Program-made: the position numbers and the translations under genes | Virus record (IMG/VR): IMGVR_UViG_2778261269_000005 | Location: 1 to 37,915 of that record | Reading direction: 5' to 3' (one strand) | DNA: 37,915 nt | Source: a virus | Taxonomy: Duplodnaviria; Heunggongvirae; Uroviricota; Caudoviricetes | Shown: positions 2,983-33,396 of the stretch, in pieces | Layout: each line of letters begins with the position of its first letter | Numbering within the stretch: the stretch's first letter is position 1 | Notes under the pieces: model-generated | What the model was told of the DNA's origin: nothing | Databases searched by the model: none | What the model saw: only the letters and a program-made list of their open reading frames with translations

Positions 2983-3315
2983 TCATACCACGACCTGTTC
3001 AAAATTTGCGGTTACCGTGACCCACAGCGCCCCCACACTGGACGACCATTTACGGCAGACCACCCGGACAGGTGTCCAGCCATAAGGCGGTGTCCACTGA
3101 AACGCCCTGACCCCACCGTGCCGGGCCAGAAACGCTTCCAGCGCCTGATGCTCCCCTTTACGGACACGGATCGTGACACTGTACGTTGGCAACAGAGGAT
3201 TCAGTCCCGCCGGACGACGCTGTTCATAACCATCACCCAGTTTAACTGTCACCACTTTGGGCTCTGAATCCACCTTCATATCCGGACGGACTTTCCAGCT
3301 AAATATCTCCATCAC
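2983..3315 (-). CDS. M: tail tip protein M
   Basis: 110-aa ORF, lambda M-like; ATGA overlap with the H stop. Confidence 0.85.
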   Translation of the reverse strand: MMEIFSWKVRPDMKVDSEPKVVTVKLGDGYEQRRPAGLNPLLPTYSVTIRVRKGEHQALEAFLARHGGVRAFQWTPPYGWTPVRVVCRKWSSSVGALWVTVTANFEQVVV

Positions 3316-11106: not shown

Positions 11107-12723
11107 TTACGGCATACTCATCAGCAGTTCTTCTTCCCCGTTCCCGGCAGTTCCGCCACCGGAAACGGCACTGGCGGCATGCTGTGCCATGAAGCGCTCA
11201 AAAAGTGTTACCTGTGACGGTTGCGATACTGATGGCGCAGCTGCCAGCAGCGTTTTCGCCTGCTCCACTGTCATTCCAGGTTGTTCAGCCAGCGCCTGTG
11301 CCAGTTTTTCGCGTCCTTTTGCTTCCGGCAACGCAATAATTTGATCGCCGGTACTTGCCGTACCGGTTGCCGGTGCCGCTACCAGTAGCATTTTCGCCTG
11401 TTCCACCGTCATTCCCGGCTGTTCAGCCAGCGCCTGTGCGAGTTGTTCACGCCCTTTTGCTTCCGGAAGTGCCATAATCTGCTCGCCGGTACTTGCCGCA
11501 CCGGAAACCGGTGCCGCTGCCAGTAACGTTTTCGCCTGCTCCACCGTCATTCCCGGCTGTTCAGCCAGCGTCCGTGCCAGTTGTTCACGCCCTTTTGCTT
11601 CCAGAAGTGCCATAATCTGATCGCCTGTGCTGTCAGTACCGGCAACCGGTGCTGCCGCCAGTAATGTTTTTGCCTGCTCAACTGACATTCCCTGCTGACC
11701 TGCCAGCATCTGCGCCAGTTTTTCGCGTCCTTTCGCCTCCTGACAATTCAGGATCCCCATCACGCGCTGATTTTCCTGGGACACCGCTTCAGCAACGGTG
11801 AGATTTTTTGTTGTCATCGTATTCTCCTGTGTAACAGAGTCGTTCAGAGCAGAAACCATTACATCAACGGCATCTGCAGCATTAATCAGTTGATCAGCCA
11901 GGCCTATATCAATGCCTGCCTGACCGTCATAAACGGTAGCCTCGGTATTCATCACCGCCTCTGAACTCAGCCCCGTATAAAGCGCCACCTTGTCGACAAA
12001 CATCCGGCGGGCCTCATCAATACGGCGCTGAAAATCCGCACGCACACCTGTCGGCAACGCCTGAATACTGTTGCCGTCAACCTTGTGCTGCCCGGAGTAA
12101 ATCAGCGTGATATCCACGCCTTCCTGTGCCAGTTGTTTCTCGTAACTGGTGTGCGCCATCATCACACCAATCGAACCAATTTTTGCCGTCTGCGTGACCA
12201 GCCGACGCGTACAGGCCGCCGCCAGCAACATGGCGGCTGAACAGGCCATGTCATTACACAGCGCCCACACGGGCTTCTGTTCCCGCAGACGGTAAATCAT
12301 GTCAGCACAGTCAAACGCCCCGGCAGCCTGACCACCCGGACTGTCGATATCCAGTAAAATGCCGCGTACATCCGGGTCGTTCACCGCTGACTTAAGACGG
12401 GCAGTCAGACCGTCATAACCGGTCATACCGGAATATGGCCGCAGGGTACCCATTTTATGTACCAACGTGCCGCTCACCGGCAGAATGGCAATACCATTTT
12501 TCACCTGGTAACTCTTTACCGGACGCGGACCACCAGTCATATAATCGGTAACCGCCAGCTGCATACCATCGGCATCAAGCTGAACGGCCTGCTGCGGAAC
12601 GGCAAGGTTGCCCGCCCCCATCTCCTTACCCAGTGCGCAAAAGAAAACCCGCGCATAGGCGGGTTCCAGTAAAAGCGGCTCATTAAATGCCATCGCGGCA
12701 ATATGTGATAAATTACAGCGCAT
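11107..12723 (-). CDS. C: prohead protease / scaffold (S49 peptidase, C/Nu3-type) with internal tandem repeats
   Basis: 538-aa ORF; N-terminus MRCNLSHIAAMAFNEPLLLEPAYARVFFCAL is lambda C-like; S49 peptidase region; C-terminal part holds repeated 46-aa units. Confidence 0.85.
   Translation of the reverse strand: MRCNLSHIAAMAFNEPLLLEPAYARVFFCALGKEMGAGNLAVPQQAVQLDADGMQLAVTDYMTGGPRPVKSYQVKNGIAILPVSGTLVHKMGTLRPYSGMTGYDGLTARLKSAVNDPDVRGILLDIDSPGGQAAGAFDCADMIYRLREQKPVWALCNDMACSAAMLLAAACTRRLVTQTAKIGSIGVMMAHTSYEKQLAQEGVDITLIYSGQHKVDGNSIQALPTGVRADFQRRIDEARRMFVDKVALYTGLSSEAVMNTEATVYDGQAGIDIGLADQLINAADAVDVMVSALNDSVTQENTMTTKNLTVAEAVSQENQRVMGILNCQEAKGREKLAQMLAGQQGMSVEQAKTLLAAAPVAGTDSTGDQIMALLEAKGREQLARTLAEQPGMTVEQAKTLLAAAPVSGAASTGEQIMALPEAKGREQLAQALAEQPGMTVEQAKMLLVAAPATGTASTGDQIIALPEAKGREKLAQALAEQPGMTVEQAKTLLAAAPSVSQPSQVTLFERFMAQHAASAVSGGGTAGNGEEELLMSMP
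11233..11739 (-). repeat. about 3.7 in-frame tandem copies of a 138-bp unit inside the protease/scaffold gene
   Basis: TTTTCGCC(TG) recurs at 11253, 11391, 11529 and about 11667 (period 138); protein shows repeated AKGRE(K/Q)LA...GMTVEQAKTLLAAAP...STG(D/E)QI(M/I)AL(L/P)E units. Confidence 0.8.
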
Positions 12724-19912: not shown

Positions 19913-19989
19913 TGGAGAGCGGGTGGCGAGAATCGAACCCACATCATCAGCCTGGAAAGCTGAGGTAATAGCCATTATACGATACCCGC
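19913..19989 (-). tRNA. diverged tRNA-Gly(UCC)-like gene, possibly a pseudo-tRNA
   Basis: Minus strand reads GCGGGTATCGTATAATGGCTATTACCTCAGCTTTCCAGGCTGATGATGTGGGTTCGATTCTCGCCACCCGCTCTCCA: cloverleaf with GGTTCGATTC T-loop and UCC anticodon, but a 7-66 mismatch, wobbles in the T-stem and no clean CCA. Confidence 0.55.
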
Positions 19990-20206: not shown

Positions 20207-21253
20207 TTAAAAATCTTTCGTGATTTCTCTGACCGTCTGATTAAAACGTTCCTCTTCCAGTTCCACGCCAATCGCCCTGCGTCCCAGCGACAGTGCCGCT
20301 TTTATTGTCGACCCCGACCCCATAAAAAAATCTGCGACCAAATCGCCTGGACGGCTGCTGGCAGTAATTATCTGACGCAACATATCCGCCGGTTTTTCAC
20401 AGGGATGTTTACCCGGATAATACTGCACGGGCTTGTGCGTCCAGACATCCGTATACGGAACGGCAGCCGATACGGAAAAATAACGCCGCAGGGATTTGTA
20501 CTCATCCAGCAGGCTGGCATATTGCCGGTTCAGTTCGCTGTATGTGCTGACCAGCTGGTGGGGTGGCTGCTCCAGTTCACCGCGCTGGTGTTTTTCTGCC
20601 GCAACACGCGCAAACAACGCCTGCAGTTTACTGTAATCGGCCTCATTCGGTAACTGCCACTGACTGGTACCAAACCAGTGCGAAGCCATGTTTTTCTTTC
20701 CGGTGGCTTCAGCTATCTGTTTTGACGTTATCCCCAGTAATTCACGCGCATCACGGAAGTAAGAAATCAGCGGAGCCATCACGTGCTGTTTAAGCTCGCG
20801 CCCCTTTGCTGCATAGCCGTCATTTTTTGGCTGGTATGGCCCCTGATAATGTTCAGCAAACAGAATGCGCTCTGTTGCCGGGAAATATGCCCGTAAACTT
20901 TCCTTATTGCACCCGTTCCAGCGTCCGGACGGCTTCGCCCAGATAATGTGGTTCAACACATTAAAACGTTCACGCATCATGAGTTCGATATCTGATGCCA
21001 GTCGATGGCCACAGAACAGGTAAAGACTTCCGGCAGGCTTCAGTACCCGCCAGAACTGTGCAAGACACTGGTCCAGCCATTTCAGGTAATCATCGTCCCC
21101 CTTCCACTGGTTATCCCAGCCCTCGGGCTTCACTTTAAAGTATGGCGGGTCTGTGACTATCAAATCGACAGAGTTTTCCGGTAAGGTCAGGATAAATTCC
21201 AGGCAATCAGCGTTGACTAACTCACAGCTGGATATTTTTACAGTATTAGCCAT
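20207..21253 (-). CDS. DNA methyltransferase, beta-class N6-adenine/N4-cytosine (DPPY) family
   Basis: 348-aa ORF; N-terminal LIVTDPPYF (motif IV) and C-terminal DFFMGSGST (motif I). Confidence 0.85.
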   Translation of the reverse strand: MANTVKISSCELVNADCLEFILTLPENSVDLIVTDPPYFKVKPEGWDNQWKGDDDYLKWLDQCLAQFWRVLKPAGSLYLFCGHRLASDIELMMRERFNVLNHIIWAKPSGRWNGCNKESLRAYFPATERILFAEHYQGPYQPKNDGYAAKGRELKQHVMAPLISYFRDARELLGITSKQIAEATGKKNMASHWFGTSQWQLPNEADYSKLQALFARVAAEKHQRGELEQPPHQLVSTYSELNRQYASLLDEYKSLRRYFSVSAAVPYTDVWTHKPVQYYPGKHPCEKPADMLRQIITASSRPGDLVADFFMGSGSTIKAALSLGRRAIGVELEEERFNQTVREITKDF

Positions 21254-28903: not shown

Positions 28904-29866
28904 TTATCCCCTGAACCCTGGCGGAATTTCGGTGTCCGGTTCAGAAATGTGATTCACACAACGCTGTACAGGCGAACGTCCCAGACGAATAACCAGCTCA
29001 TCCCATTTTTCGCGAAGCTTTGACGGGCTCATGACGTTTTTTACCCAGAATGGATCCCGTTGTACCCGACTGAACATTTCGCAAATTTGCCTGTGAGTTC
29101 TGCCATCCAGCATCCGCATTGTGCGCACGTCATTGGCCCATGCGGTCCAGTTGGGTTCTTTCGGTCGCGTAATCTCGCCATCATCGCTGGCAGCCTGTTC
29201 GTAAAGACTCACGATTCGCCACCAGATCCACTGCGCACACGTCAAATCTTCCTGAGTTCCCCACTGGCGTTTTTTCACACTGAACACAACCGCATCAGGA
29301 TGACGGGTTAAAAACGCCTGTTCAGCTGTCTTCTCGTCCGGTTGCGAAGTTTCCGGACAAGAAGATCTTTTATCTGACGGATCAGGTTTTAATACTGACG
29401 GATCGGGGCCAACCATCGCCCCCCTAACCGGCTGTTTTTTATCAACGGTTGATCCATCAGAATTTGACGGGTCAACCGTTGAGGGGTCAATATTTGACGG
29501 GTCAACGGTTAGCGGGTCATTTTTTGCCGGGTTAATTTTTCTTTTCGGTTTATATGCCTCACGCGCCGCCGCTGCTGCTGCTTCGAGTTTTTCCACATTA
29601 AGACGGTAGATATTGCTTTCATTACGCCCACCGACCTTACGTTCCTCCTTCGTCAGCCAGCCGTTCTTTTCCAGTTCAGCTATCGCAGCTTTAACCGTTG
29701 ATTCACTCTTTGCCCCAATCTGACGACGAATGGTCTCCACTGCAGGCCATGACACACCTTCGTCATTGCTGTAGTCTGCAAGGCGAGCCATTACTGCCAC
29801 TCTGGATAAGATCATGCCTGTGAAGGCACACCCTTCCCAGACAAGACCATGAAGCTTACTGCTCAT
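28904..29866 (-). CDS. replication initiator (lambda O-like; wHTH N-terminus, iteron-encoded repeats)
   Basis: 320-aa ORF; wHTH-like N-terminus (STVKAAIAELEKNGWLTKEER); internal VDPSNIDPSTVDPSNSDGSTVD repeats coincide with DNA iterons. Confidence 0.65.
   Translation of the reverse strand: MSSKLHGLVWEGCAFTGMILSRVAVMARLADYSNDEGVSWPAVETIRRQIGAKSESTVKAAIAELEKNGWLTKEERKVGGRNESNIYRLNVEKLEAAAAAAREAYKPKRKINPAKNDPLTVDPSNIDPSTVDPSNSDGSTVDKKQPVRGAMVGPDPSVLKPDPSDKRSSCPETSQPDEKTAEQAFLTRHPDAVVFSVKKRQWGTQEDLTCAQWIWWRIVSLYEQAASDDGEITRPKEPNWTAWANDVRTMRMLDGRTHRQICEMFSRVQRDPFWVKNVMSPSKLREKWDELVIRLGRSPVQRCVNHISEPDTEIPPGFRG
29466..29537. repeat. replication origin iterons (five GGGTCAA-type repeats at 15-bp spacing) plus adjacent AT-rich tract
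   Basis: GGGTCAA/GGGTCAT/GGGTTAA at 29469, 29484, 29499, 29514, 29529, followed by TTTTTGCCGGGTTAATTTTTCTTTTCGGTTTATAT. Confidence 0.6.
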
Positions 29867-29889: not shown

Positions 29890-30315
29890 TTAGTGCATCA
29901 CCACGGCATTTCCCGCCGGGCCACCACGATTCATCTGATTGAAGCCAGCGATCGCCACTGCGACAAAATCATCGGCGTCTCTCACCAGCCGTTCCCGCGA
30001 CTCCACCAGCTCCCGAAACCAGGCTGAACTGTGACTGCGCATTCGGGCCACCAGCAGAGGCGGCATTGCCTTTTCGATCGCAGGCAACAACGCCTGAATT
30101 TTTTTAACCGCATCAGGAGTGTCTTTCTCCACCCAGCGGAAAATTTTCTGGGTATTGCGAGCCAGGGCTTCTGGGTGTGAATCGTCATACAGTTCCGGAA
30201 ACGTCATACCCAGTTCAAAATAAGCCCGGGTTATTTCAGCTGCCGGAACTTTTTCGCCGTCCGGATGCGCCCAGGCATTCATCGCCATGCGGATGTGCTC
30301 ATGCTTGATTTTCAT
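29890..30315 (-). CDS. YdaT-like protein (CII-position early regulator)
   Basis: 141-aa ORF beginning MKIKHEHI, directly after the Cro-like gene (ATGA overlap). Confidence 0.5.
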   Translation of the reverse strand: MKIKHEHIRMAMNAWAHPDGEKVPAAEITRAYFELGMTFPELYDDSHPEALARNTQKIFRWVEKDTPDAVKKIQALLPAIEKAMPPLLVARMRSHSSAWFRELVESRERLVRDADDFVAVAIAGFNQMNRGGPAGNAVVMH

Positions 30316-30614
30316 GAATCAACTCCATCAGATAAGCATGCACTACAATCACCTTCAGCATGAACTACATGTGTTTGCCCCAAACGAATGCCGCTCGCAT
30401 ACTCAGGCCAAATAAGCTCCCAATCATGGGGTCGTAGCTCCGCCCTACTTACTTGGCCTTCCGTCGCAGATTCGATCATAAGGGCGCGGGTTGGAGATAT
30501 AGCTGCTCGTCCAGACGCCATTTGCGATAAGTAAGATGGCGATACACCAAGTCTGGCCGCGAATTTCTTAGCATCACCAACCCTCAATGATTTAATAAAC
30601 TCTTTTAATGTCAT
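30312..30614 (-). CDS. Cro-like HTH regulator (YdaS-type)
   Basis: 100-aa ORF; FAARLGVSPSYLSQMASGRAAISPTRA HTH; divergent from the repressor across an operator-rich intergenic region. Confidence 0.7.
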   Translation of the reverse strand: MTLKEFIKSLRVGDAKKFAARLGVSPSYLSQMASGRAAISPTRALMIESATEGQVSRAELRPHDWELIWPEYASGIRLGQTHVVHAEGDCSACLSDGVDS

Positions 30615-30620
30615 ACCTTC

Positions 30621-30705
30621 CTCGGTTTAGTGTTTTTTTCGAGTTTAGTGTTTAATAAACCATTAAGTCAAGTATTTGCTTATTTAGTGATTACTAAAGA
30701 TAATT
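30621..30705. promoter_or_regulatory. OR-like operator/promoter region between Cro-like gene and repressor
   Basis: GTTTAGTGTTT at 30625-30635 and 30643-30653, TATTTAGTGA at 30681-30690, TTAAGTCAAGTA at 30663-30674; TTGACT and TTGCTT-17-GATAAT promoter-like hexamers. Confidence 0.5.
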
Positions 30706-30710
30706 ACCAC

Positions 30711-31082
30711 ATGCAAAAAAAAGAAATTCGCCGTTTACGTCTCAAGGAGTGGTTTAAAGATAAAACTCTGCCACCCAAAGAGAAGAGCTACCTATCTCAA
30801 CTAATGAGTGGGAGGGCCTCGTTTGGAGAAAAGGCTGCCAGAAGAATAGAGCAAACATACGGGATGCCGGAAGGGTATCTGGATGCGGAATACGCAGAAC
30901 AACCGGAAGTTTCTCCACCACATGTAGGGTTAACGTCTAATCAACTGGAATTATTGCAGATTTTTTCAGCCTTCCCTGAGGATGAGCAACGCCAGATAAT
31001 CAGCGAGTTAAAGCAGAAAAAAGAATCAATGGAAGATCTCATAGCGAGATGGATTGCGGCGCAAAAATGCCGCCGCGCCTGA
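30711..31082 (+). CDS. prophage repressor, XRE-family HTH without S24 peptidase domain (CI analogue)
   Basis: Start set at ATG 30711 (123 aa): MQKKEIRRLRLKEWFKDKTLPPKEKSYLSQLMSGRASFGEKAARRIEQTYGMPEGYLD; almost no leader after the -10-like GATAAT. Confidence 0.65.
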   Translation: MQKKEIRRLRLKEWFKDKTLPPKEKSYLSQLMSGRASFGEKAARRIEQTYGMPEGYLDAEYAEQPEVSPPHVGLTSNQLELLQIFSAFPEDEQRQIISELKQKKESMEDLIARWIAAQKCRRA

Positions 31083-31102: not shown

Positions 31103-31294
31103 ATGAATAGAGCCCTTTCACCAATGGTTTCTGAATTTGAAACCATTGAACAAGAAAACAGTTACAACGAATGGCTGCGTGCGAAAGTAGCAACGAGCCT
31201 TGCAGATCCGCGCCCAGCAATTCCCCATGACGAAGTTGAGCGCAGAATGGCAGAACGCTTTGCTAAAATGCGCAAGGAACGGAGCAAGCAGTAA
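31103..31294 (+). CDS. putative type II antitoxin
   Basis: Start set at ATG 31103 (GGAGG RBS), 63 aa; stop 1 nt before the toxin start. Confidence 0.55.
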   Translation: MNRALSPMVSEFETIEQENSYNEWLRAKVATSLADPRPAIPHDEVERRMAERFAKMRKERSKQ

Positions 31295-31295
31295 A

Positions 31296-31574
31296 ATGTT
31301 ACCCGTGTTATGGCTTGAAAGCGCAGATACCGACCTAGATGATATAACTAGTTATATTGCTCGTTTCGACATAGATGCGGCTGAACGCTTATGGCAGCGA
31401 TTAAGGGGTTGTGTGCTGCCGTTATCCGAACATCCGTATTTATACCCACCAAGCGACAGAGTACCTGGCTTGCGTGAGATTGTAGCCCACCCTAACTATA
31501 TAATTCTATACCGCGTAACAACATCAAGCGTTGAAGTAGTAAACGTGATCCACACAAGACGCCAGTTTCCCTAA
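31296..31574 (+). CDS. RelE/ParE-superfamily toxin
   Basis: Start set at ATG 31296 (92 aa): ...LREIVAHPNYIILYRVTTSSVEVVNVIHTRRQFP is RelE/ParE-like. Confidence 0.65.
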   Translation: MLPVLWLESADTDLDDITSYIARFDIDAAERLWQRLRGCVLPLSEHPYLYPPSDRVPGLREIVAHPNYIILYRVTTSSVEVVNVIHTRRQFP

Positions 31575-31640
31575 CTTTCACTACCAATAGAAACATAACA
31601 ACCGCAACGACTTTATCAAAAGCGTTGTGTTTGTTACGCC

Positions 31641-31690
31641 CCATGGTTTAGTTTTTACTTGACTTAAGTTTAATGTTTATTAAACTAAAA
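31641..31690. promoter_or_regulatory. OL-like operator/pL-like promoter
   Basis: GGTTTAGTTTTT, ACTTGACTTAAG (inverse of the OR TTAAGTCAAGT) and TTTAATGTTTATTAAAC repeat the OR elements; TTGACT-16-TAAACT on the plus strand. Confidence 0.5.
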
Positions 31691-33338: not shown

Positions 33339-33396
33339 TTTCTGGTGACGTTTGGCGGTATCAGTTTTACTCCGTGGCTGCTCTGCCGCCCTTTTT
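33339..33396 (+). ncRNA. dicF: DicF small regulatory RNA
   Basis: TTTCTGGTGACGTTTGGCGGTATCAGTTTTACTCCGTGGCTGCTCTGCCGCCCTTTTT matches remembered DicF nearly base-for-base, with 3' hairpin and U-run, upstream of dicB. Confidence 0.85.

Follow-up and report, generated by a model that had tools for sequence, protein, structure and literature searches.

CP-933P (Sp12) is a cryptic lambdoid prophage of Escherichia coli O157:H7 (PMC8630535). Its immunity region has been described by Jurenas et al. 2021 (PMC8630535) and by Hallez et al. 2010, and its YdaT protein has been treated separately (PMC9986795). 5' RACE mapped the start of PRM933P to the first base of the paaR2 ATG; PaaR2 expressed from its native promoter has the N-terminus MQKKE and the expected intact mass (PMC8630535). 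EMSA and DNase I footprints of the 97-bp region indicate that PaaR2 covers ~78 bp and YdaS ~65 bp, and that both overlap both promoters (PMC8630535). PR933P has been confirmed by 5' RACE together with a gfp fusion; such fusions were made for PRM, PR, PL and PRE, and PRM933P and PR933P are cross-regulated (PMC8630535). In particular, PRM is activated and PR repressed when PaaR2 is low, YdaS has a preference for PRM, and the locus as a whole is bistable (PMC8630535). Of these properties, the transcription starts, the PaaR2 N-terminus, the binding, the regulation and the bistability have been demonstrated directly only in the O157:H7 locus, which is near-identical to the one described below.

Several other elements of this system have been defined. 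A further promoter, PL933P, lies beyond parE2, has the same -35 and -10 sequences as PR, and is repressed by both PaaR2 and YdaS (PMC8630535). YdaT has been assigned as a CII analogue (PMC8630535, PMC9986795); it activates a PRE-type promoter at the ydaS/ydaT junction (PMC8630535), and its site has been defined as TTGATTN6AATCAA by Prolic-Kalinsek et al. (PMC9986795). PaaR2 has no autocleavage motif and gives no response to mitomycin C (PMC8630535). The O157:H7 control region contains four equally spaced 18-bp inverted repeats with the half-site consensus GTTTAGTAA (PMC8630535). IR1 overlaps PRM and IR3 overlaps PR, and IR2 and IR4 each retain one half (PMC8630535). The precise sequences recognised by PaaR2 and YdaS were left open by the authors, who considered either the inverted repeats or "pseudosymmetrical operators" (PMC8630535).

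The paaR2-paaA2-parE2/ydaS-ydaT locus

The window (the whole stretch of DNA that was analysed, 37,915 nucleotides) carries this system. On sequence grounds, positions 30615-30710 are the operator/promoter region of a lambda-like prophage switch in which the PaaR2 repressor opposes YdaS, and the whole locus is the paaR2-paaA2-parE2/ydaS-ydaT immunity region of a CP-933P-type lambdoid prophage. The feature is not new: Jurenas et al. 2021 (PMC8630535) had characterised it by experiment in E. coli O157:H7. With high confidence, the region can be regarded as an analogue of a right operator, with back-to-back PRM and PR promoters, a leaderless paaR2 transcript, and inverted repeats for which PaaR2 and YdaS compete to give a bistable switch. 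A first reading, made from the sequence alone, had foretold both the operator region and the leaderless repressor mRNA, each of which had already been proven by experiment. The region governs a bistable prophage switch and sets the expression of a toxin-antitoxin pair whose toxin, ParE, is a gyrase poison. Two aspects are modestly new: a natural 96-bp allele with altered IR4-IR3 spacing, and the retention of the leaderless geometry across genera.

The reference used for comparison is the locus of O157:H7 strain TR01. All 14 of the Table S3 primers that were checked match it exactly, and the TR01 locus can therefore be taken as the published sequence. What is established for the window is its sequence identity to the O157:H7 locus, its geometry, and the conservation of its elements across genera.

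The control region (30615-30710) is 96 bp long, compared with 97 bp in the published locus, and has 29% G+C versus 50.5% for the window. It separates a minus-strand helix-turn-helix gene of 100 aa (30312-30614) from a plus-strand gene of 123 aa (30711-31082). The first of these is ydaS, the Cro analogue (Pfam YdaS_toxin PF15943 and HTH_3), which is preceded by the Shine-Dalgarno sequence GAGGAAGG at 30616-30623 and whose product is identical to that of O157:H7 at 99 of 100 residues. Behind the divergent ydaS comes ydaT, the CII analogue (29890-30315, minus strand; 141 aa; Pfam YdaT_toxin PF06254, E = 1.5e-9), whose product is 85% identical to the O157:H7 protein (21 of 141 residues differ).

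The gene on the plus strand is paaR2, the CI analogue. Residues 1-65 of its product are 100% identical to PDB entries 7NKV/8C3K, "Phage repressor protein CI" (E = 1.4e-39), and the solved structures that match it (PDB phmmer, E <= 0.01) are PaaR2 entries only (7NKV, 8C3K, 8C3L). Identity to the O157:H7 protein is 120 of 123 residues, and the three differences (residues 66, 67 and 72) all lie in the linker. No Pfam family is matched at E <= 0.01, and the Pfam search with the 123 aa gave no match to Peptidase_S24. (The earlier note had described simply a repressor; more exactly, it is a short CI analogue that lacks a RecA-cleavable domain and heads a toxin-antitoxin operon.) Directly downstream and on the same strand are the PaaA-type antitoxin gene paaA2 (31103-31294; 63 aa; Pfam PaaA2 PF21217, E = 1e-19), whose product is identical to that of O157:H7, and the ParE-type toxin gene parE2 (31296-31574; 92 aa; Pfam ParE_toxin PF05016, E = 1.6e-16), whose product differs from it by one residue; together with the regulator they form a paaR-paaA-parE module.

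Beyond parE2 is a second operator/promoter set, OL/PL (31646-31686, plus strand), a copy of the cassette that had been overlooked in the earlier note. It has IR-like sites at 31646-31663 and 31668-31685 and a promoter, TTGACT-16-TAAACT (31659-31686), with -35 and -10 sequences identical to those of PR. The operator/promoter core is identical to that of O55:H7 and falls within the published PL933P reporter fragment (primer matches at 31575 and 31671).

The prophage in the window has portal, terminase, protease, tape-measure and integrase genes. The region is present in 593 of 5426 complete E. coli genomes (~11%), and at least one deposited phage record, phage Evi, carries it. Rfam gave no match to the intergenic region; in the whole window it reported only DicF and a tRNA. 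Literature matches to "PaaR2" from 2022 onwards mostly concern the PAAR2 of type VI secretion, which is unrelated, and were set aside.

Promoters and operators of the control region

The two promoters of the control region, both of the sigma-70 type, lie back to back. The PR-type promoter of ydaS-ydaT (30642-30671, minus strand) consists of TTGACT (30671-30666), an 18-nt spacer and TAAACT (30647-30642), scores 9/12 in a consensus promoter scan, and has an exact pattern twin in PL. The PRM-type promoter of paaR2 (30676-30704, plus strand) consists of TTGCTT (30676-30681), a 17-nt spacer and GATAAT (30699-30704).

As the earlier note had pointed out, repeats lie between the divergent Cro-like and repressor genes, and all of the elements that it listed are present. 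The sequence GTTTAGTGTTT occurs at 30625-30635 and at 30643-30653, with starts 18 bp apart, and TATTTAGTGA occurs at 30681-30690. Their clustering is far from random. The heptamer TTTAGTG has five copies over both strands of the 37.9 kb, and three of these are inside the 96-bp gap, where 0.005 would be expected (Poisson P = 2e-8). The description of these copies as direct repeats is only partly adequate: the copies are there, but they fit better as half-sites within 18-bp inverted repeats. What had been overlooked is that the second copy is the left half of IR3 and the third is the left half of IR1.

Read in this way, the region contains four 18-bp units that start at 30625, 30643, (30662) and 30682, with a spacing of 18-20 bp. 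IR4 (30625-30633, plus strand) is represented by the half-site GTTTAGTGT, which is the first direct-repeat copy and lies near the expected PR start. IR3 (30643-30660), with the halves GTTTAGTGT and TTAATAAAC, includes the second copy and overlaps the -10 element and spacer of PR. IR2 (30662-30679), a degenerate repeat ATTAAGTCAAGTATTTGC with inferred limits, spans the back-to-back -35 boxes. IR1 (30682-30699), a near-perfect palindrome with the halves ATTTAGTGA and TTACTAAAG, includes the third repeat and fills the PRM spacer. Compared with GTTTAGTN4ACTAAAC, IR3 has one mismatch and IR1 has two. The window thus has the expected region of about 97 bp in which GTTTAGTAA-type inverted repeats overlap both promoters. 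We infer the role of each individual repeat from these positions. The earlier suggestion that this is an OR-like region is supported by EMSA, DNase I footprints and gfp fusions on the O157:H7 locus (PMC8630535). (RACE, EMSA and reporter fusions, which the earlier note had suggested, are experiments already contained in Jurenas et al., PMC8630535.)

A candidate site for YdaT lies elsewhere. The predicted high-affinity site OM, TTGATTTTCATGAATCAA (30305-30322), at the ydaS/ydaT junction in the PRE region, is the sole exact match in the window to 5'-TTGATTN6AATCAA-3', and it falls within the published PRE933P reporter fragment, which by its primers corresponds to about 30287-30406 of the window. 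Binding of YdaT inside OR was considered and rejected: that region has no consensus site, and the literature reports no binding of CP-933P YdaT to the paaR2-ydaS region.

Conservation of the cassette across genera

A scan that used one genome per species gave 27 heterologous loci encoding relatives of PaaR2 (44-76% identity over the best aligned segment). A divergent YdaS-like gene is present in 22 of the 27, and PaaA2 was found beside none of the 27 homologues. Within the DNA-binding domain, the segment KEKSYLSQL...SFGE.AARR is invariant. Seventeen of the loci share with the window a cassette that has a fixed order: a palindrome resembling IR3, GTCAAG (the PR -35 read backwards), TAT, TTGCTT, the 17-nt spacer that contains IR1, a -10 element of the form CAAAAT or CACAAT, and the ATG. 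Their sources are Yersinia, Erwinia, Raoultella, Enterobacter, Morganella, Arsenophonus, Winslowiella, Acerihabitans, Escherichia sp., Photorhabdus caribbeanensis, Massilia, Mycoavidus, Glomeribacter and a scaffold labelled Martelella.

Together with the window these loci make up 18 distinct sequences. Sixteen of the 18 (counting one Morganella locus whose start codon was checked) have 6 nt between the -10 element and the homologous ATG; the remaining two have 5 and 7 nt, respectively. This length is kept although the sequence of the gap drifts. Half-sites at -68/-57 (IR3) and at -29/-18 (IR1) from the ATG are found in nearly all of the 17 loci. IR4, the half-site at -86, was seen solely in the E. 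coli CP-933P type; a scan of the 17 loci with leaderless geometry gave no copy of it. Nine further homologues, from Xenorhabdus and Photorhabdus, keep the cassette but have their ATG 50-310 nt further downstream, and consequently leaderless expression is not universal in the family; the leaderless layout appears to be a trait of PaaR2 family members without being common to them all.

This pattern of conservation supports three suggestions. First, the palindromes would be the recognised units. Across genera, conservation extends to the other half of each palindrome, and for this reason the palindrome reading is preferred and a reading as iterons or direct repeats has been dropped. Conservation of this kind favours inverted repeats as the PaaR2 operators, the point that the original paper left open. 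Second, the leaderless geometry would be under selection. Third, the toxin-antitoxin pair would be a late insertion, as Jurenas et al. had already proposed (PMC8630535). A broader reading, which we favour with some reserve, is that a single immunity specificity with an obligatory leaderless maintenance repressor is ancestral across Gamma- and Betaproteobacteria, and that paaA2-parE2 and the IR4 half-site are late additions in E. coli. It is based on a cassette that is kept near base-for-base in prophage regions of more than 12 genera and on the invariant helix-turn-helix of PaaR2. No description of this cross-genus conservation was found in the literature examined.

A natural 96-bp allele

Aligned with either O157:H7 TR01 or O55:H7 DEC5E, the intergenic region shows two differences in 97 positions. 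One difference is the deletion of a G between 30639 and 30640, in the IR4/IR3 interval between a run of T and CGAG; it brings IR4 and IR3 closer together (a spacing of 18 instead of 19 bp) and also takes one base out of the interval from the PR -10 element to the PR start. The other replaces the outer G of IR1 (30682) by A. Each of the two changes could modulate the switch. Going by their distribution, both can be regarded as natural polymorphisms that are probably neutral, and the two-base variant would act like the O157:H7 allele.

The alternative is that the variant is a decayed or shifted copy in which the switch has been disabled or rewired through the length of the PR discriminator, the phasing of IR4 and IR3, or a weaker IR1. 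Both variant bases fall within footprinted DNA, and among 5,426 complete E. coli genomes none of the 593 carriers has the exact 146-bp region (the best is 98.6%). However, an exact 38-mer containing the deletion occurs once in IMG/VR, in an independent prophage whose flanking DNA shares just 94.8% identity. The half-site whose spacing is changed, IR4, is wholly missing from the leaderless-geometry loci of other genera, and an A at the outer position of IR1 is natural in Photorhabdus and common in homologues. In addition, all five proteins of the locus are intact, and the prophage retains the structural and integrase genes named above (portal, terminase, protease and tape-measure genes among them). 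A disabled or rewired switch is for these reasons improbable, and a natural allele of a working switch is the preferred reading.

The predicted leaderless start of paaR2

The earlier note had placed a GATAAT about 7 nt before the repressor ATG, and this is correct: GATAAT (30699-30704) is followed by the 6 nt TACCAC and then by the ATG at 30711-30713, whose A is the 7th base past the -10 hexamer. When a -10-like hexamer is defined as one with at least 4/6 matches that include A2 and T6, GATAAT is the only one on the plus strand of the gap. By geometry, TTGCTT-17-GATAAT-6-ATG predicts that the PRM transcript starts at 30711, with the A of the paaR2 start codon as its +1. PRM is identical to that of O157:H7 save for the first base of the spacer, and the window is identical to O157:H7 from -28 to at least +25. 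The published "+1" cloning primer F-1-PaaR2 is an exact match to positions 30711-30738. The 6 nt between the -10 element and the ATG leave no room for a Shine-Dalgarno sequence, and none precedes paaR2. The first 35 nt of a leaderless mRNA are predicted to be unpaired (MFE -3.4 versus -6.7 kcal/mol for shuffled sequences), and an unpaired 5' end fits translation from a 5'-terminal AUG.

These features have to be weighed against the possibility that the repressor is made from leadered transcripts only, coming from PRE or another upstream promoter, or is translated from an upstream in-frame GTG, and that GATAAT is not a working -10 element. An upstream PRE-type promoter with an exact YdaT site does exist, but transcripts from PRE add to those from PRM and do not replace them. 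The consensus promoter scan reported PR and not PRM. This miss has been dropped as evidence against PRM, because the scan needs at least 4/6 matches in the -35 element and TTGCTT, with 3/6, is below its threshold. Three in-frame GTGs (codons -27, -21 and -8), with no stop between, precede the paaR2 ATG, and the ORF listing calls a 150-aa frame from the GTG at 30630. These GTGs could in principle serve on PRE-derived transcripts; however, no Shine-Dalgarno sequence lies ahead of any of them. The 150-aa call is mechanical, since the GTG at 30630 is in frame because of the 1-bp deletion and is out of frame in the reference; lacking a Shine-Dalgarno sequence, and given the published N-terminus MQKKE, it was rejected. 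The 123-aa product is the real PaaR2 protein. Finally, the 6-nt distance between the -10 element and the ATG is maintained across genera as the sequence drifts, and in the near-identical locus, to which the window corresponds over the whole of -28 to +25, 5' RACE places the start at the ATG and the protein made from its own promoter begins with MQKKE and has the expected mass (PMC8630535). Expression without a leaderless PRM transcript is accordingly improbable, and the claim that the repressor mRNA is leaderless, like that of lambda cI from PRM, is supported by these 5' RACE and MQKKE results.

A last alternative, that the repeats are chance sequences of AT-rich DNA or iteron-like direct repeats for another protein such as YdaT, has in its favour the 29% G+C of the gap and the fact that on one strand the copies are in direct orientation. 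Against it stand the clustering (P = 2e-8), palindrome partner half-sites kept in sequence and position across genera, the location of the sole YdaT consensus site at 30305-30322, and the reported failure of CP-933P YdaT to bind the paaR2-ydaS region, and it is for practical purposes refuted by PaaR2 and YdaS footprints that cover the repeats (PMC8630535).

A model for the switch

In the preferred reading, RNA synthesis from the rightward PRM-type promoter TTGCTT-17-GATAAT would begin on the A of the paaR2 ATG, and paaR2-paaA2-parE2 would be translated from this leaderless mRNA. The leftward PR-type promoter, TTGACT-18-TAAACT, would yield a normally leadered ydaS-ydaT mRNA. The GTTTAGT repeats would serve as half-sites of the 18-bp inverted repeats, with IR2 the weaker and IR4 reduced to a half-site, and these inverted repeats would be bound competitively by PaaR2, as the CI analogue, and by YdaS, as the Cro analogue. 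Low PaaR2 would shut both PR and PL (31646-31686); PRM would be stimulated by low PaaR2 and repressed by high. YdaS would prefer PRM, and PaaR2 and YdaS together would constitute the bistable switch. YdaT, as the CII analogue, would bind its TTGATTN6AATCAA site at 30305-30322 and turn on the PRE-type promoter, which would give rise to a second paaR2 transcript, one with a leader.

Relation to CP-933P, Rac and lambda

The closest relative is CP-933P of O157:H7 itself. Shared with it are the genes and their order, the PaaR2 DNA-binding domain, PaaA2, the -35/-10/ATG geometry of PRM, the PL/OL core, and the exact YdaT site. In contrast to the cryptic CP-933P, the prophage in the window looks structurally complete, and its replication and late genes are mosaic when compared with O157:H7.

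The racR/ydaS-ydaT locus of the Rac prophage (E. coli K-12) is alike in its gene layout and in the Pfam families of YdaS and YdaT, and its PracR3, the strongest racR promoter, also yields a leaderless transcript (PMC9638921, PMC11879457). However, Rac has another repressor and other operators, one RacR operator being inside racR (PMC9638921, PMC11879457). The intergenic region is a target of YdaT in Rac but not in CP-933P, and Rac has no toxin-antitoxin pair downstream. The CP-933P YdaS and YdaT proteins are 26% and 31% identical to those of Rac, and PaaR2 has been treated as a distinct repressor (PMC8630535).

The likeness to lambda is one of functional analogy, as argued in PMC8630535. As in lambda OR, where cI is served by PRM and cro by PR, the repressor and Cro genes diverge from back-to-back promoters, and several palindromic operators are common to two competing regulators; as in lambda, the maintenance transcript lacks a leader, PL carries a second set of operators, and PRE is activated by a CII-type protein. 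PaaR2 has no detectable sequence similarity to the lambda CI family and no HTH_3-type N-terminal domain (Pfam and PDB phmmer, E <= 0.01). Thus the region works like lambda OR, but PaaR2 stands outside the lambda CI family. Unlike lambda CI, it is a protein of 123 aa without the S24 autocleavage domain; rather than the three 17-bp operators of lambda (PMC8630535) there are four 18-bp repeats, 18-20 bp apart; and, in a further departure from lambda, the PaaR2 operon carries a ParE toxin-antitoxin pair.

Variation in the Control Region

The control region between ydaS and paaR2 differs from the published O157:H7 sequence at two positions. One base pair is deleted at 30639-30640, in DNA that separates IR4 from IR3 and also links the PR -10 to the PR start, and the outer base of IR1 (30682) is A here rather than the published G. 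This exact allele has no match among the complete E. coli genomes of the collection; the deletion without the second change is found again in the IMG/VR contig UViG_2537561936_000014.

PaaR2, YdaS, PaaA2, and ParE2 are each ~98-100% identical to their O157:H7 counterparts, and the YdaT operator is exact, whereas YdaT itself (29890-30315) has 85% identity, with 21 differences in 141 positions that lie mostly in the C-terminal half. This disparity between YdaT and both its neighbors and its operator suggests either that a mosaic junction lies here or that YdaT evolves faster.

The Start of paaR2 and Its Relatives

Codons 2-4 of the leaderless paaR2 contain a run of eight A residues (30715-30722). 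In the Morganella homologue (locus L013, 2995-3006), there is a frameshift inside the equivalent A run, for which mutation, assembly error, or slippage could each be the source. A perfect 10-nt inverted repeat, CGAATTTCTT / AAGAAATTCG, flanks the control region, with one arm within ydaS (30560-30569) and the other over paaR2 codons 4-7 (30721-30730); a transcript derived from PRE would include both arms.

In nine homologous loci of Xenorhabdus and Photorhabdus (L004-L008, L010, L011, L016, and L017), the same promoter/operator cassette is kept ~50-350 nt upstream of position 3001, but the repressor ATG is displaced downstream by 50-310 nt. Either the repressor mRNA of these loci would carry a leader, or the repressor may be preceded by a small leaderless ORF. 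Candidate ORFs of this kind are seen in L004 and L017 (e.g., ATGCTACAAAAG...).

The Surrounding Prophage

The O-like replication gene (28904-29866, minus strand) contains iteron-like 15/30-bp repeats (TTGACGGGTCAAC...) at 29442-29532, which probably form the prophage origin, in the manner of lambda. Downstream of PL, the early-left region carries a DicF antisense sRNA gene (33340-33391, plus strand; Rfam RF00039, 75 bits). A tRNA-Gly gene with anticodon TCC (19917-19989, minus strand) lies within the prophage and neighbors an N6/N4 DNA methylase gene (20207-21253, minus strand). Query coverage reaches at least 80% in 13 E. coli genomes, and in the few genomes listed the corresponding stretch is annotated with the same tRNA-Gly.

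The S49-peptidase gene of the head protease/scaffold type (11107-12723, minus strand) contains a 138-bp tandem repeat (11240-11740; 3.6 copies, 84% matches), which yields a 46-residue protein repeat. Besides this protease, 982-37915 encodes a lambda-type portal, large terminase, tape measure, exonuclease VIII-like protein, and an integrase whose gene extends past the end of the window. The Escherichia phage Evi record (LR597642) carries this immunity region too. Unlike CP-933P, which is cryptic, the prophage at 982-37915 appears to be structurally complete.
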